A DNA stretch of 64,000 nucleotides from Pseudomonadota bacterium. GTDB taxonomy: Archaea; Thermoplasmatota; SW-10-69-26; JACQPN01; JAJPHT01. The notes beneath the pieces were generated by a model, which had not been told where the DNA came from, ran no database searches, and saw only the letters and a list, made by a program, of their open reading frames with translations. This document shows, in pieces, positions 10,517 through 44,960 of the stretch. Made by a program: the position numbers and the translations under genes. The first letter of the stretch is position 1, and every line of letters begins with the position of its first letter. The stretch spans positions 168,144-232,143 of the forward strand of contig JAJPHT010000029.1 in assembly GCA_021325135.1 (NCBI GenBank). The letters are read 5' to 3'.

Positions 10517-10655
10517 CCGAGCCCATCCGTCAGCGCCCGGGTAGTTAAGAGTTGTTGGTTCGGCCGGCGAACGTTCCGGGCCCTTCCCCGGCGCCCCCAG
10601 GCCTCAGAAAGTTCTTAGGAGGGAAGCCTTGTGGCCCCATCGCCAGCGACGCATT

Positions 10656-10728
10656 GCGGCGTTCGCGTAGCGGTTAGCGCAGCAGCTTCCCAAGCTGCCC
10701 TCCGGGGGTTCGAATCCCCCACGCCGCA
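10656..10728 (+). tRNA. tRNA-Gly (anticodon CCC), no intron, CCA not encoded
   Basis: Acceptor GCGGCGT/ACGCCGC-A; anticodon arm GCAGC-TTCCCAA-GCTGC; T arm GGGGG-TTCGAAT-CCCCC. Confidence 0.93.
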
Positions 10729-10744
10729 TTTCAGCGGGCACTCC

Positions 10745-39526: not shown

Positions 39527-39895
39527 GTGAGTGCACCCTCCGGCCCCTCCCGTCCCCCCGCCTATGGCAGCGCGCCCCGTGGGCCCCCGCCCCAGCGCCG
39601 CGGCTTCGAAGGGGACGAGCGGCGCGGCGGCGGCACGCCCCGCAAGCGCATGATGGCCCAGGGGCGCAAGGGCCACTTCATGCACGACGCCAAGGCGCTG
39701 CTCGCGCGCACGCAGGGCGGCATGGACGACCAGCACGTGCGCGCGTTCCTGGAGGGCCTCTTCGCCCGCGGCGCGCGCCACAGCACGGCCGACGCGCAGC
39801 AGTTCCTCGACGAGAAGCTCCAGGCCCAGACCATCACGCCGGAGCAGCGCCAGGGGCTTGGACGCCTCGTCGAGCAGTACTCGTTCTGGCGATAG
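39527..39895 (+). CDS. Conserved hypothetical protein
   Basis: TTTATT box about 30 nt upstream; helical C-terminal domain ending LVEQYSFWR. Confidence 0.7.
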   Translation: MSAPSGPSRPPAYGSAPRGPPPQRRGFEGDERRGGGTPRKRMMAQGRKGHFMHDAKALLARTQGGMDDQHVRAFLEGLFARGARHSTADAQQFLDEKLQAQTITPEQRQGLGRLVEQYSFWR

Positions 39896-39901
39896 GTCCG
39901 G

Positions 39902-40774
39902 CTAGATGGGCAGGACGTACTTCGTCGAGGGGCGCACGATGTCCCAGAAGACCATGCGGGGCTCCGAGCCGCCGGGAAGCACCGACGCCGACACGACGAA
40001 CTCCCGCTCCTGGGAGCCCCACCCGAGCCGCCACGGAAGATCGCGCACCAGGTCGACGTAGCGGCGCAGGAGAGACTCCGGAAGGGGCGCGTAGGCCTCC
40101 TGGTCAAGAAGGAGGGTCCGGTCGATCTTCCGCAGGTGCTCCTCTCCCGCGCCCGCCAAATCGCCTGGAGACAGAGGAGCCCCCGTGGTGAGGCTCCGGC
40201 CGATCTTCTCCAGCCGCAGCCGCTTCGAGATGGCGTAGTCCTCAGGCGTGACCAAGTGGCGGCTCAGCACGGCGGGAAGGACTCGGTCGGCGTAGCAGAG
40301 CAGGCGGATGCGCTCGTGAGGCGTCACGTCTCCACGGTTGATGTCGCTCACGTCGAAGCCGGGGCCCACGATCTCCAGGATCGCCTCCGCCTTGCCGTTG
40401 GGGAGAAGGAGGTTGATGCCGTACAGGTTTTCATGGCGGTCCGAAGGCTCCAGGAGGGAGACGATGCGGCCCATGGCGAGAATCTCCGGGACCCTGGCAT
40501 CGACTTCGCGCGCCTCGATCTGGAAACCCCCCCGCATGTACGAGCCCCGCTCCTCGCTGGAGTCCGTGCGCACGAGGACCTTCTTCCACCCCTTCTGCCG
40601 GATGGCCTCTCCAAGCCACGAGGCGATCCCTTCGCTCCAGCGGGTCACGACGAAACCCTCTCTTGCAGGCAGGCCCAGCCGCCACGTCTCGTACGTGGAC
40701 GCTGTCTTGGCGTAGGCCCTTAGGGGCGCGGGGGTCGCCTCGGCTCCAAGCACGAACGCGCCCTCCGGGATCAC
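39902..40774 (-). CDS. Hypothetical protein with a PPDK/PEP-synthase nucleotide-binding (ATP-grasp)-like N-terminus
   Basis: AKTAS...LGLP..EGFVVT and VLVRTDSSEE resemble GKxANL...GLPVPxGFVVT and VAVRSS..ED; GGAGG SD and GTGA overlap; family call is tentative. Confidence 0.6.
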   Translation of the reverse strand: MIPEGAFVLGAEATPAPLRAYAKTASTYETWRLGLPAREGFVVTRWSEGIASWLGEAIRQKGWKKVLVRTDSSEERGSYMRGGFQIEAREVDARVPEILAMGRIVSLLEPSDRHENLYGINLLLPNGKAEAILEIVGPGFDVSDINRGDVTPHERIRLLCYADRVLPAVLSRHLVTPEDYAISKRLRLEKIGRSLTTGAPLSPGDLAGAGEEHLRKIDRTLLLDQEAYAPLPESLLRRYVDLVRDLPWRLGWGSQEREFVVSASVLPGGSEPRMVFWDIVRPSTKYVLPI

Positions 40775-41841
40775 GATGGCTTCCTCCCAAGGACGGCGAC
40801 GGGATCTCTGGCCAGGGGGTGGGCCTGGAATCCGCGGGACCGGACCAGCTCCAGGAGCTCCTCCGGGCTGAATCCCTTCTGGAACGTCCGAGACGTGGTC
40901 AACCAACCGTCGGCGCACGCCTGCCACGCGGGGGTCCGGAGCCGGTCGATCTCTGTCGCCGAACGGACTGCGATGGCCAAGTGCCCGCCGGGGGGGAGGA
41001 AGGCGAAGATGTCGTCAAGCACGCGCGCCCGCTCGCGCGGATCGGCGAGGGTGTTGAGGACGAATGCGCAGTGGACCCAGGTGAACCTCCCGCCAGGGTA
41101 GGCCGAGGGGGGCGGGTGAGGCCGGTGGGCCGGGTCCCAGCCTTCGGCTTCGAGGCCGGAGGCTCGGAAGTGCTCGATGTCCTTGCCCTTTCCGCACCCC
41201 CAGTCGAACACGGGCCCGTCGATGAGGCCCTGGCCCACCACCAGCTGGGCCAGCGAGGAGGGGCCGCGGCGCGACATGGTGGTGCGGCCCGACAGGCGCA
41301 GGGTCGCGCGCGCGTCGGGGGCCTCGGGATCGCCCAGCGTCGCCTGGCGCGGCGTGGCGCGGGGGGCTGACCCTTGGAGAAGCCGATGGCCCTCGATGCG
41401 GACCCCGGCCTGCCGGAGGAATCCTTCCCACGCGAGCTTGCGGCCGATGACACGCAGCTTCTCCGGGGCGTAGAGGCCTGCGGCCTCCTCCTGACGCGTG
41501 AGGGCCGCGTACTCCGCGCGCCGAGGGTGGGCGTCGGCCACGAACGCCTCCTTCCGGTGAAGGATCGAGGGGTTCGAGCGCGACTCCTTCCGGGTGCGCG
41601 CCTGGCGGGCGTCGAGGTCCACCGTCACGTACTCCCTCAGCTCGGGGTGGGCCTCCTCCTCGAACCCGGGGTACCAGGAGAACGTGACGCGCCGGAGACC
41701 GCGGTCGACCTTGACGAGGTTCCAGGGGGCATCGGGCGGGACGAGGCGACGAGCCTCCTCAAGGGTCGCCAGGGCCTCGGAGGGCAAGGCCCGGAGGTTG
41801 TCGCGGTGGACGTACCAATTGCCGTGCACGATCTTAGGCAA
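40771..41841 (-). CDS. DNA phosphorothioation-associated-type putative SAM methyltransferase (short form)
   Basis: YP.F.EEAHP.L, NPSILHRKE, FDWGCGKGKD, GWDP.H.P, FVLNTL.DP.ER, TFQK; TTG start with GGAGG SD. Confidence 0.8.
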   Translation of the reverse strand: MPKIVHGNWYVHRDNLRALPSEALATLEEARRLVPPDAPWNLVKVDRGLRRVTFSWYPGFEEEAHPELREYVTVDLDARQARTRKESRSNPSILHRKEAFVADAHPRRAEYAALTRQEEAAGLYAPEKLRVIGRKLAWEGFLRQAGVRIEGHRLLQGSAPRATPRQATLGDPEAPDARATLRLSGRTTMSRRGPSSLAQLVVGQGLIDGPVFDWGCGKGKDIEHFRASGLEAEGWDPAHRPHPPPSAYPGGRFTWVHCAFVLNTLADPRERARVLDDIFAFLPPGGHLAIAVRSATEIDRLRTPAWQACADGWLTTSRTFQKGFSPEELLELVRSRGFQAHPLARDPVAVLGRKPS

Positions 41842-42520
41842 GCGCCTTCCTCCCTGAGCCCGGGATGCCCGGCGCCAGGCGGCGCACCGTCGCGACGAGG
41901 TCCCCCGTCTTCGGAGCCACGTTCCAGTCGTATTCGTCCCCGCGGCCCAGCGCGTGGGCGATGCGGCGCCTCATGAACTGGCTCTGGAAGCCCTCCGCGT
42001 CCACGACCAGCAAGCCCCGCTTGAGGCCATACGCGCGGACGTACAGATAGGGCTTCCCGGCGGCCAGCAGGCGCCGAGCCTCGGGGACGTACCCGCCCCG
42101 AGGGGCCCAGGTCAAGCCCTGGACAGCCTCCTGCGCGACGCGCGCAGGGAGGGGCACGAGGTGGAGATGCGCGTGATCCACGCACCCGCCTCCCCGGCAC
42201 GATTCCGTGGCCATGCCATGCTCGAACGCCAGGACGCAGCCTCCGTACGTGGCCCGAAGCGTGCGGACCAGGCCAGCGACGAATGGGCTGAACGCGGCCG
42301 CCTCGGCATGCTCCAGGTGCCCCACGGACAGGGCATGCCGGATCGGCGAGACCAGCAGGTGCCCTTCGACGAGGGGTCCGACGGAGGGGAACGCGACGAG
42401 GCCGGGAGCCGTCCGGACGACGCGCGAGGAGAGCCCGGGCGCGAGCTCGCGCAAGATGGAGGGCATGGTGGGCGCCAGGGGGTCGAGCTCGGCGCAGAGC
42501 TCGCAGGCCGTCTCGGTCAT
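41834..42520 (-). CDS. HIT-family nucleotide hydrolase
   Basis: CELC, GPLVEGHLLV.P..H, FEHG, GCVDHAHLHLVP (HxHxH); ATGA overlap with the upstream gene. Confidence 0.85.
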   Translation of the reverse strand: MTETACELCAELDPLAPTMPSILRELAPGLSSRVVRTAPGLVAFPSVGPLVEGHLLVSPIRHALSVGHLEHAEAAAFSPFVAGLVRTLRATYGGCVLAFEHGMATESCRGGGCVDHAHLHLVPLPARVAQEAVQGLTWAPRGGYVPEARRLLAAGKPYLYVRAYGLKRGLLVVDAEGFQSQFMRRRIAHALGRGDEYDWNVAPKTGDLVATVRRLAPGIPGSGRKALA

Positions 42521-43089
42521 GGGCGGCCCTCCGGGGAAGCCAGTTCGGTCGAGATCAGGGAGGGGGCGAGCCCTTCCGTCCCGTCGTACGTTCCCAGGAT
42601 GGGGTGCGATCCCCGGATCTCGGCCAGCGCCAGGTGGCAGATGGGCATCATGGGACGCAGCGTGAGGGGCGTGGGATTGCGGCTGCTGACCTCCAGCGTG
42701 AGGGGCGTGGGCCGCGTGCTTCCGAACCCCGCCTGGACAAACGTGGACCCGAGGTGGACGTCGAGGCCCAGGCGCGCCAGGTGGGAGAGATTGGAGAGGA
42801 CGCCCGCCAGGTCTGCGGGCAGGCGGAGCCGCTCGTGGGTGCGCAGGAGCAGGAAGTCCCCCGGCCTGACCTCCAGGCGGGAGAACTCGAACTCGGGGCC
42901 GGCGTTCCTCTCGGCCTCGCGCGGGTCCGTCAGGTCCAGCGGATCCTCGGACTCCAGGAGGCGCCGGCCGCGGTTCCCCAGGTGGAGCACGAGGGACGTG
43001 CTGCGGACGGGGTGGACGGGCCACGGGTCCACGACGAGGCGTCCGGAGAGGGCGAGGCGGAGCATGCCGCGAGGGCCGATGAGACTCAA
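42517..43089 (-). CDS. dCTP deaminase-like protein (divergent)
   Basis: G.L.VDP, SLVLHLG, PGDFLL.RT.E.L.LP, S.LARLGL.VH, GF, LTLEV, ICHL, Y.G; probable TTG start at 43089. Confidence 0.82.
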   Translation of the reverse strand: MSLIGPRGMLRLALSGRLVVDPWPVHPVRSTSLVLHLGNRGRRLLESEDPLDLTDPREAERNAGPEFEFSRLEVRPGDFLLLRTHERLRLPADLAGVLSNLSHLARLGLDVHLGSTFVQAGFGSTRPTPLTLEVSSRNPTPLTLRPMMPICHLALAEIRGSHPILGTYDGTEGLAPSLISTELASPEGRP

Positions 43090-43148
43090 GGTTGTCCCCG
43101 TCGCCTCGGCGCCTGACCAAGGCTTAAGTCTGTTACACGGCATGTGGG

Positions 43149-43184
43149 AAGTGCGTCAAGTCTGTCAAGTCAGGCAAGTCCAGG
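43149..43184. promoter_or_regulatory. Four 9-bp direct repeats in the divergent promoter region
   Basis: AAGTGCGTC AAGTCTGTC AAGTCAGGC AAGTCCAGG, plus AAGTCTGTT at 43126 overlapping the CTTAAG box. Confidence 0.65.
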
Positions 43185-43194
43185 AGGCTTCCCA

Positions 43195-44004
43195 ATGAAG
43201 GAGACCGTGAACATCGTGCCCGTGGGCTGGGAGGTGGACAGGGTGATCGAGGCCGCCAAGATGCGGAAGGCAGACCGCGTCATCCTGCTGCGGCGCGACA
43301 CGGGAACCGAGAGCGCGCGCTTCTTCCAGAAGATCGCCAAAGGCCTGGAAGCCAGCCGGATCGAGTGGGAGGACGAGGTCGTGGGGCTCGACAACGAGTT
43401 CCAGGACACGCTGCGGGCGGTGGCACACTGCGTCCGCCGGGAGCACCACAAGAAGCACCGCGTGGAGGTGAACATCAGCGCGGGGGGCAAGACCGCGGCC
43501 GTCGCCGCGAGCCTCGCCGCCATGTACCACCAGGGGCGGTGCACGCTCTTCCAGGCGATCCCGGAGAGCTACACGGCCTCGAAGCTGGAGCAGGGGGCCG
43601 AGGCGGCCGCGAAGCTCTACGAGAACCACGGCCTCACCATCGGGGTCAAGGACGTGCCCGATCTGACGCACTACCATCTCACGGCGCTTCCCCTGGAGCA
43701 GGAGATCGTGCTGGCCGCCTGCACGACCAAGCAGCAGACCCTGGACGATCTGCTCAATCTCCTTCGCAAGCACGGGTCCACTTCGTTCCGTCTCAAGCTG
43801 GGGAAGGACAGGGACGCGGCCGTGAAGGTCCTGGAGCGCTGGGTCCTTCAGGACCTCGAGGAGAAGAAGTACGTCGAGCGCGACCAGCACCTCGGGAGCA
43901 AGGGGAACAGGAAGAGCTTCCTCGTGACGGACGTGGGACTGGATGCCGCGCTCATCACGGGCCTCCTCAACAAGGAGAGGACGCCTCAATTCGACCTGGC
44001 CTGA
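43195..44004 (+). CDS. DUF6293/HFX_2341-like regulator (CARF-like N-terminus plus C-terminal wHTH)
   Basis: VNIVPVGWEVDRV, ADRVILL, VEVNISAGGK, PESY; C-terminal helix-wing ending LVTDVG; GGAGG SD. Confidence 0.78.
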   Translation: MKETVNIVPVGWEVDRVIEAAKMRKADRVILLRRDTGTESARFFQKIAKGLEASRIEWEDEVVGLDNEFQDTLRAVAHCVRREHHKKHRVEVNISAGGKTAAVAASLAAMYHQGRCTLFQAIPESYTASKLEQGAEAAAKLYENHGLTIGVKDVPDLTHYHLTALPLEQEIVLAACTTKQQTLDDLLNLLRKHGSTSFRLKLGKDRDAAVKVLERWVLQDLEEKKYVERDQHLGSKGNRKSFLVTDVGLDAALITGLLNKERTPQFDLA

Positions 44005-44135
44005 CGTGCCAGGGGCCCCGCCAAAGCATATAAATCGTGCCGAGGATCGGCTCGGGGCTTGCCCGCGACCGAGAAAGGACAACCTTCAAGTCCGCGCCGC
44101 TGGCATGGGCTCGGCGTGGGAGTCGTAGCTCCCCC

Positions 44136-44960
44136 GTGGTTTCGGAGGGCTTCGCACTGAAGGAACTCCCCGTCGACGAGTTCACCACGGACAAGGCGTT
44201 CTTCGCGGCGCTGAAGCTCCACGTCTACGGCACCGTCCACGACTCCTTCCTGGCGACGCTGGTGAAGGGCCGCAGCCTCGTGCTCGACCAGGCCTTGAAG
44301 CTGGAGGTGGGGCGCTTCACGAGCCGCAAGGCGAACCACCTCTTCGTCTCCGAGAACGGCAGCCGCGGCGGGTGCAGCGCGGAGTTCTACGGCTTCACGT
44401 CCCACAAGGTGCGCGAGAAGCTGGCGCAACTGCACGACCTGGGCGTCGTCGAGCTTCTGGGCAAGGGGCTGCGCGATGCGTACACGTACCGCTGGAAGGT
44501 GCCGGTGAAGCACTGGGAGGTGTGCAGCTTCATGCGCTTCCGCAGGCTCACGGCGGAGGACCTCTCGCTGAACCTGGAGCTCTTCCGCGTCTTCCACGCC
44601 CGCGGCACGGCGCCCTTCACGGCGCGCGAGTTCGTGGAGCTCTACGGGCGCGCGCACGGCGCGGAGTACACCAGCACGCGCTGGGGCGCGCGCAAGTGGG
44701 AGAAGATCGCGTCCTCCTTCGCCTACGGCGAGTTCGTCAAGGACCGCCTCGACCTCCTGGTGAAGCACGGCCTCGTCGCGCAGCAGGGGGACTCCTACCA
44801 GCTTCCCGCGCCTGTGCTGGACGCGGTGAACCACTTCGACCTCTTCCTCAACGGCGTGCCCTACCGCGCCTCGCGCGCCATGTGCGACGCCTGCCCCCTG
44901 GACGCGCTCTGCCAGACCGGCAGCACGCAGCGGCTCATCGTGTCGCTCAACCAGGCGTGA
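44136..44960 (+). CDS. Hypothetical protein with two wHTH-like regions and a C-terminal CxxCPxxxxC motif
   Basis: VREKLAQLHDLGVVE and VKDRLDLLVKHGLV...SYQL; CDACPLDALC; CATATAAA box near 44027. Confidence 0.7.
   Translation: MVSEGFALKELPVDEFTTDKAFFAALKLHVYGTVHDSFLATLVKGRSLVLDQALKLEVGRFTSRKANHLFVSENGSRGGCSAEFYGFTSHKVREKLAQLHDLGVVELLGKGLRDAYTYRWKVPVKHWEVCSFMRFRRLTAEDLSLNLELFRVFHARGTAPFTAREFVELYGRAHGAEYTSTRWGARKWEKIASSFAYGEFVKDRLDLLVKHGLVAQQGDSYQLPAPVLDAVNHFDLFLNGVPYRASRAMCDACPLDALCQTGSTQRLIVSLNQA

Follow-up and report, generated by a model that had tools for sequence, protein, structure and literature searches.

The stretch of DNA analyzed here is 64,000 bp long (positions 168,144 to 232,143 of contig JAJPHT010000029.1 in assembly GCA_021325135.1; hereafter "the window") and carries NMD3- and Csl4-like genes that are archaeal in character; the genome is probably that of a high-GC member of the Thermoplasmatota. 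It contains a cassette of four minus-strand enzyme genes, which encode a dCTP-deaminase-like protein, a HIT protein, a methyltransferase and an ATP-grasp protein, and a divergently transcribed regulator gene. This is more than a chance arrangement, since the cassette is a clean insertion relative to another genome of the same genus (G002) and unrelated genomes have the same combination of genes. The conserved core is the ATP-grasp protein plus the HIT protein, and the deaminase and methyltransferase are exchangeable partners. It belongs to a real and apparently undescribed family of cassettes whose central enzyme is unannotated. An earlier reading of these genes, made without database searches (the sequence-only reading), had proposed a module, and a real, recurring module it is; that reading missed the two-protein core and the exchangeability of the other two enzymes, and it overlooked the commonest form of the family, in which a NUDIX protein and a membrane DUF5919 protein are the partners.

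Distribution and Composition of the Cassette Family

A single-sequence search of GTDB with the locus gave no relatives; they were found by an alignment-based GTDB search. The ATP-grasp family comprises 465 clusters at 50% identity and is rare in individual genomes: it was not found in 100 relatives, and surveys of 400 genomes each turned up none in the host phylum (host excluded), none in Acidobacteriota and one in Chloroflexota. The loci come from motif-seeded scans and many lie on short contigs, so partner counts are indicative only: a HIT gene accompanies the ATP-grasp gene in 72 of 98 dereplicated loci (40 of the 47 that have at least 1.5 kb on both sides), and the other partners in the 98 are membrane DUF5919 (50), NUDIX (48), methyltransferase (9), MazG-like (8), deaminase (7) and radical SAM (5) proteins, with cysteine desulfurase, PRTase-like, ThiF and NDT proteins rarer still.

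Partner type follows the clades of the ATP-grasp tree. The NUDIX/membrane pair marks the largest clade. The window's protein belongs to another one, with 15 members (support 0.99), where enzymes (methyltransferase, deaminase, MazG, radical SAM, ThiF or NDT) and never that pair serve as partners. The neighborhood check shows that the full four-enzyme combination recurs in four unrelated loci, L003/L004, L042, L123 and L154/L155, mostly at 24–45% identity, with the qualifications that the L123 ATP-grasp gene is cut by a contig end and that L154/L155, on two Streptomyces plasmids, have the methyltransferase domain only. In these plasmid loci, which come from cultured strains and one of which is on pSMg1-2 of Streptomyces sp. 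Mg1 (L154:4586-10898), deaminase, HIT, ATP-grasp and cysteine desulfurase genes are divergent from a LysR gene, an EEP-nuclease/methyltransferase fusion and a MazG-like gene. The CARF regulator recurs in one other locus, L191 (1450-8009), a probably archaeal operon of multi-ubiquitin, Prok-E2_E, ThiF/E1, HIT, ATP-grasp, MazG-like and split methyltransferase genes that is divergent from a CARF3 gene whose product is 24% identical to the window's regulator over the CARF domain; regulators at other loci are of the XRE, LysR, MarR and helix-turn-helix (HTH)-TPR types.

The dominant form of the family is a four-gene unit of NUDIX, membrane DUF5919, HIT and ATP-grasp genes in soil Acidobacteria, Actinomycetota and Verrucomicrobia (L009, L011-L013, L015, L018-L022, L025-L028, L030 and about 30 metagenome loci, e.g., L013:5734-8873). 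It often lies behind an XRE or other HTH gene and is a signal/membrane-effector candidate; in L016, L078 and L097 the membrane and HIT proteins form a single fusion.

Acquisition and Organization of the Cassette

The site is empty in G002, where the next gene after the 122-aa one (which ends at 39,895 in the window) is already the homologue of the ~44,136-44,960 gene. This comparison delimits an inserted segment of ~4.18 kb (39,898-44,079) that holds exactly five genes, so the regulator arrived together with the operon. The only sequence common to the two junctions is AGG at both ends, and a repeat scan and the gene content showed no terminal repeats and no integrase at the insertion. Measured against a crude host gene set, the codon adaptation index is 0.56–0.62 for the four enzyme genes (about the 4th–12th percentile), 0.69 for the regulator and 0.71–0.87 for flanking genes. 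The less host-like codon usage that had been judged by eye is thus borne out for the enzymes, and the horizontal acquisition proposed with it is supported by these values, by the empty site and by the absence of the family from the 400 other genomes of the phylum. Genome-wide negatives here and below refer to the 3.77 Mb host assembly, which is 94% complete.

All five open reading frames (ORFs) of the sequence-only reading are present, with the overlaps that it had claimed (ATGA at 42,517-42,520, 8 nt at 41,834-41,841 and GTGA at 40,771-40,774), and the four enzyme genes are translationally coupled. The Shine-Dalgarno sites that it had seen upstream of two genes are real; GGAGG in fact precedes three of the four operon genes (HIT, methyltransferase and ATP-grasp) and the regulator as well. 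The deaminase gene most likely starts at the TTG at 43,089, which gives 190 aa and equals the length of the database gene call, and the regulator start was corrected to the ATG at 43,195 (269 aa).

As for the surroundings, the 122-aa ORF of the left flank (39,527-39,895) matches no known family and has several paralogues per genome. The right flank gene (~44,136-44,960) encodes a protein of ~275 aa, also of no known family, that has a C-terminal CxxCxxxxxC motif and is kept in 14 of 14 relatives searched. A tRNA-Gly(CCC) gene at 10,655-10,729 is far from the cassette and is not its insertion site.

The ATP-Grasp Protein

The ATP-grasp gene (39,902-40,774, minus strand, GTG start, 290 aa) has no match in Pfam (including PF01326), NCBIfam, PADLOC or PHROG. 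Its AlphaFold2 model (predicted local distance difference test score 94) has a PPDK-type ATP-grasp domain that matches the ATP-binding domain of rifampin phosphotransferase (RPH; 5hv1) with Z 14.7 and a root-mean-square deviation (rmsd) of 3.8 over 227 aligned residues, HpeI with Z 13.7 and PPDK with Z 10.0, and Foldseek matches it to 9goj (E 1e-6). The predicted structure therefore upholds the PPDK-like identity that the sequence-only reading had given this protein, even though no profile matches it; profile searches bear out the families that it had named for the other four (DCD, HIT, methyltransferase and CARF-like). The structural neighbors are less than 20% identical, so the fold alone does not reveal the function.

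Conserved positions are K23, R69, G82-G83, E134, G137-x-G-F-D, R147-G148, H153-E154, R187 and W277-D278. In 143 sequences R69, E134, G139, F140, R147 and R187 are ~99% conserved, and H153, W277 and D278 94–97%. K23 aligns with the Lys of phosphoenolpyruvate (PEP) synthase, and profile-profile alignment to PEP synthases recovers the N-terminal motif only; judged from secondary structure, the C-terminal Glu/Gln/Arg (metal/phosphate) residues appear to be replaced or remodeled. There is no phospho-His swivel in the cassette, and PF00391 has a single match in the genome, the housekeeping PEP synthase, which is encoded on a different contig. A swivel is fused to 4 of 170 ATP-grasp relatives (C-terminally in P0050, P0070, P0087 and P0095) and is adjacent in about 5 of the 98 loci, and this minority ties the family to phosphotransfer. 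An N-terminal MazG/PRA-PH-like domain is fused to the ATP-grasp in P0060, P0080, L071 and L072.

The HIT, Deaminase and Methyltransferase Proteins

The HIT gene (41,834-42,520, minus strand, 228 aa) matches PF01230 (HIT) and PF04677 (CwfJ_C_1), and the best solved relative of its product is CWF19L1 (E = 6e-13 over most of the protein). The H116-x-H118-x-H120 triad is intact: its three histidines do not vary among 30 sequences and are kept in at least 94% of 63. An N-terminal CxxC and an FEHG motif are also present. The match to ThsC, the HIT protein of Thoeris, is weak (E = 0.05 for the window's protein and 6e-4 for a relative). Two other loci contain related HIT genes with no ATP-grasp recognized, one on Rhizobium pRL1 (L187:2847-10344), in a cluster that looks like nucleoside biosynthesis, and one in Parabacteroides (L188:3349-8054), in an operon with ThyX and ATP-binding genes.

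The deaminase-like gene (42,517-43,089, minus strand, TTG start) encodes a protein of the trimeric dCTP-deaminase fold that matches the DCD superfamily (PF22769, E = 1e-19) and scores below the cut-off of the dCTP deaminase equivalog TIGR02274 (75.8 < 92.8 bits). The catalytic Ser, Arg and Glu (Ser111, Arg115 and Glu138 in E. coli numbering) are kept in alignment to 1xs1 and across the cassette subfamily. Positions equivalent to E. coli R110, S112 and D128 are altered. All cassette homologues show the same changes at these neighboring ligand positions, whereas the housekeeping dcd of the host does not. The protein is thus of a cassette-specific subfamily, and the changes suggest a shifted substrate.

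The methyltransferase gene (40,771-41,841, minus strand, TTG start, 356 aa) encodes an N-terminal NPxILHRKE domain (residues 1-158; Atlas match with TM 0.91) and a class I S-adenosylmethionine (SAM) methyltransferase domain (residues 185-356), and it matches PF13489 (Methyltransf_23). It resembles TIGR04096 in having both of these domains; its score, 144.9 bits, is below the cut-off of 150, and the domain order is swapped, with residues 8-155 corresponding to profile positions 330-476 and the C-domain to positions 6-146. The nearest structures of the C-domain are Rv0560c (7bgg, Z 17.0, rmsd 2.6, 154 aligned) and METTL6 (Z 16.2), so this domain is closest to small-molecule/heterocycle and tRNA N-methyltransferases. 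The sequence-only reading had associated this protein with phosphorothioation. A search of the whole genome found no dndC (TIGR03183), only a 24.8-bit fragment of dndD (TIGR03185) and a lone PAPS-reductase-like ORF that has no recognizable Dnd/Ssp neighbors (SspB/C/E were not searched by model). As no dnd cluster was found, the link to phosphorothioation is one of family name only, and a functional tie is rejected as unsupported, given that neither dndC nor a real dndD was found and that the domain order is swapped. The PAPS-reductase-like ORF has a gp88-like ORF beside it, and the surrounding region of this genome has low G+C at third codon positions and looks mobile (L193:1391-5655; contig C29 of the host assembly, G000). 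A virus-like contig also encodes the two-domain methyltransferase, close to an N6/N4 DNA methylase; among the called neighbors there, no gene of the cassette was recognized (L120-L122:10001-11017; L151-L153). Relatives of the N-domain turn up in viral contigs, in a 485-kb phage and in a Uroviricota cluster.

The Regulator and a Candidate Operator

The regulator gene (43,195-44,004, plus strand) encodes a CARF-like Rossmann domain and a C-terminal winged helix, and matches PF19810 (DUF6293; E = 1e-23), PF22665 (E = 9e-5) and PADLOC CARF3 (E = 1e-30), so profile searches agree with the HFX_2341-like assignment of the sequence-only reading. HFX_2341 itself represses cas genes, and its ligand is not known (PMC11434293). 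No Cas10 (TIGR02577 or TIGR02578) was found in the host genome, and the CARF ligand may therefore be the cassette's own product. The 105-bp divergent promoter region (43,090-43,194) contains two copies of AAGTCTGT 32 bp apart (at 43,126 and 43,158) and further AAGTC repeats at 9-bp spacing. The motif matches twice in the window (0.37 expected) and six times in the whole genome; as it was picked post hoc from the sequence, we regard these repeats as a candidate operator.

Possible Functions of the Cassette

We tentatively favor, with a probability of about 0.45, the interpretation that this accessory cassette is inducible, spreads horizontally and carries out nucleotide chemistry for defense in antiviral or other conflicts. 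In the mechanism that we envisage, each chemical step of which we infer, the regulator would sit on the AAGTCTGT repeats and change expression of the operon when it binds a nucleotide ligand. The ATP-grasp protein, needing no swivel, would use ATP for the (pyro)phosphorylation or adenylation of a nucleotide, possibly via its own conserved His153. The deaminase of altered specificity and the methyltransferase would make a non-canonical nucleotide from a cytosine-derived (d)NTP, and this product might drain dCTP, poison viral replication or act as a signal. The HIT hydrolase (NUDIX or MazG elsewhere) would trim the product or remove it and so protect the host, and the membrane DUF5919 protein of the main clade would be the effector.

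This interpretation rests on the rarity of the cassette, its insertion as a unit, its atypical codons, the way in which partner type follows the ATP-grasp clades, the fixed core with its exchangeable nucleotide enzymes or membrane protein, and some conflict-type neighbors. The partners are mostly nucleotide or cofactor enzymes (NUDIX, MazG, dCTP deaminase, NDT, PRTase, radical SAM, ThiF and cysteine desulfurase), which sustains the part of the sequence-only reading that saw a nucleotide-centered gene set, and dCTP deamination, NDT, MazG-type, PRTase and membrane effectors occur in other anti-phage systems. Conflict or mobile contexts include a type II CBASS 1.6 kb away in L002, the ubiquitin-type genes of L191, a DpdB-like gene upstream of the cassette in L041, plasmids and integrase regions, and the host already has two other housekeeping DCD-family genes and a PEP synthase. 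Several observations weigh on the other side. Three of the enzymes (deaminase, methyltransferase and ATP-grasp protein) lack a model in PADLOC 2.0 (2023), and the HIT protein gives only the marginal ThsC match; known defensive dCTP deaminases, to our knowledge, have a different fold; most NUDIX/membrane-type loci, judged by eye, lie between housekeeping genes and not in defense islands; and the ATP site of the ATP-grasp protein appears remodeled, with no known substrate. In addition, L003 and the Streptomyces loci resemble small-molecule clusters (ABC transporter, UDP-glucose pyrophosphorylase, cysteine desulfurase, LysR/HTH-TPR), as does the Rhizobium HIT cluster.

It is this biosynthetic look of L003, the Streptomyces loci and the Rhizobium cluster that gives some weight to a different explanation, namely that the cassette is a compact gene cluster for the synthesis of a small molecule of nucleoside type, perhaps sulfur-containing or methylated, that is exported or used against competitors, with the HIT and MazG/NUDIX proteins releasing the nucleoside or giving self-immunity. 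L003 has a cysteine desulfurase, an ABC transporter, a UDP-glucose pyrophosphorylase and a PPDK_N/swivel kinase in addition to the cassette, a desulfurase is present in three of the four other complete four-enzyme loci (L003, L123 and L154/155), the Rhizobium HIT cluster includes PRPP synthetase-, ribokinase-, desulfurase- and dioxygenase-like ORFs (read from translations), and the methyltransferase domain is nearest to small-molecule N-methyltransferases. Exporter, desulfurase and scaffold enzymes are, however, missing from the window's cassette and from most relatives, the dominant form consists of just four genes, one of them for a membrane DUF5919 protein, and partner swapping seems too free for a single product, so we consider this explanation rather unlikely. 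Detoxification or house-cleaning of nucleoside analogues or damaged nucleotides is less probable again. The RPH-like enzyme would phosphorylate, the methyltransferase methylate and the deaminase, HIT, NUDIX or MazG proteins destroy a toxic nucleotide sensed by the regulator, and the nearest solved structures (rifampin phosphotransferase and the heterocyclic toxin methyltransferase Rv0560c) are indeed of inactivating enzymes. The genes before the cassettes encode ligand-responsive regulators from several unrelated families, NUDIX, MazG and DCD/dUTPase folds are those of pool-sanitizing enzymes, and some HIT phosphoramidases confer immunity to microcin C. These structural neighbors are distant (above), the membrane DUF5919 partner is left unexplained, and inactivation of the RPH type needs swivel and substrate domains (PMC12167813), both of which the cassette lacks.

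We think it very improbable that the cassette is a nucleic-acid end-processing or base-modifying system (RNA or DNA repair, capping or phosphorothioation-linked methylation), in which the HIT protein would remove an adenylate or cap, the ATP-grasp protein re-activate the end and the methyltransferase mark the polymer. The kinship of the HIT protein to the spliceosome-associated CWF19L1, the resemblance of the methyltransferase to METTL6/Trm9, the naming of its family for dnd neighborhoods and the presence of its N-domain in a phage cluster and on a virus-like contig all point that way. Against it stand the dnd results (no dndC, a 25-bit dndD fragment and the isolated PAPS-reductase-like ORF), the lack of a conserved nuclease, ligase or nucleic-acid-binding partner, and the fact that dCTP deaminase, NUDIX, MazG and NDT enzymes act on free nucleotides. 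A phage DNA-modification pathway is disfavored because no ATP-grasp relative was found in viral contigs.

Nucleotide-centered defense remains our preferred interpretation. A bolder version of it, which we judge unlikely as a whole, is that the swivel-less PPDK-type ATP-grasp protein makes a previously unknown nucleotide (a signal or an antiviral analogue) in a new class of bacterial and archaeal immunity, with turnover by the CwfJ-type HIT protein and with membrane DUF5919 or enzymatic effectors, and that the product is the ligand of the CARF3 regulator in this host.

The pair of a swivel-less ATP-grasp protein, for which there is no Pfam model, and a CwfJ-type HIT protein defines a cassette family of several hundred clusters. 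If its role is defense, nucleotide-based immunity gains an enzyme class that is new to it, and an ATP-grasp protein that makes a new immune nucleotide would be categorically new; if it is biosynthesis or detoxification, new nucleoside chemistry is to be expected. For CARF3/HFX_2341 regulators the cassette also supplies a candidate operator and a candidate source of the ligand; it places the uncharacterized "PT-associated" methyltransferase in a context outside dnd clusters, and it provides relatives of the spliceosomal CwfJ domain among prokaryotic HIT proteins. The occurrence of the four enzyme types in the cultured Streptomyces sp. Mg1 (plasmid pSMg1-2) makes the family directly testable.

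Relationship to Known Systems

The sequence-only reading knew of no described system with this composition, and we likewise found no matching PADLOC 2.0 system and no paper describing the combination; literature searches on the domain combination, DUF5919, CwfJ and the PT-associated methyltransferase returned no description, and an earlier mention in computational surveys of nucleotide-centered conflict systems is possible. The individual proteins nonetheless have recognizable counterparts. The ATP-grasp protein shares the PPDK-type fold with RPH, the two-component HpeHI/CreHI/PpsAB enzymes, PPDK and PEP synthase, at ~11–17% identity to the known dikinases, and HpeI is likewise a free-standing ATP-grasp subunit. 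Dikinases of this fold hand phosphate on via a His-swivel domain (PMC12167813), whereas the cassette and most of its relatives have neither a swivel nor a substrate-binding subunit and have the HIT protein as their constant partner. The HIT protein differs from CWF19L1/CwfJ in being prokaryotic and stand-alone, in keeping the full HxHxH triad and in lying in operons of nucleotide enzymes. The methyltransferase is homologous to TIGR04096 proteins in both domains, but it is 356 and not 478 aa long, is split into two genes in L124, L189 and L191, and is present in a genome with no dnd cluster. The regulator has the same PF19810 + PF22665 architecture as the HFX_2341 and Csa3a CARF-winged-helix regulators (PMC11434293); unlike HFX_2341 it is mobile, linked to the cassette and not vertically inherited, it scores far below the HFX_2341 equivalog cut-off, and no Cas10 was found alongside it in the genome.

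As a whole, the cassette resembles dCTP deaminase/AvcD, Kongming, CBASS, Thoeris (with its HIT protein ThsC) and PUA-Cal-HAD (10.64898/2026.01.15.699771), all of which are patchily distributed nucleotide-enzyme cassettes with swappable effectors that include membrane proteins. It differs from the AvcD-type and related nucleotide anti-phage systems in that its deaminase has the trimeric Dcd fold. We know of no nucleotide anti-phage system that has a PPDK-type ATP-grasp or a CwfJ-type HIT protein as its core. The cassette thus falls outside the dikinases (no swivel), TIGR04096/Dnd, the Dcd equivalog and the PADLOC systems, while it would work like a nucleotide-centered conflict module.

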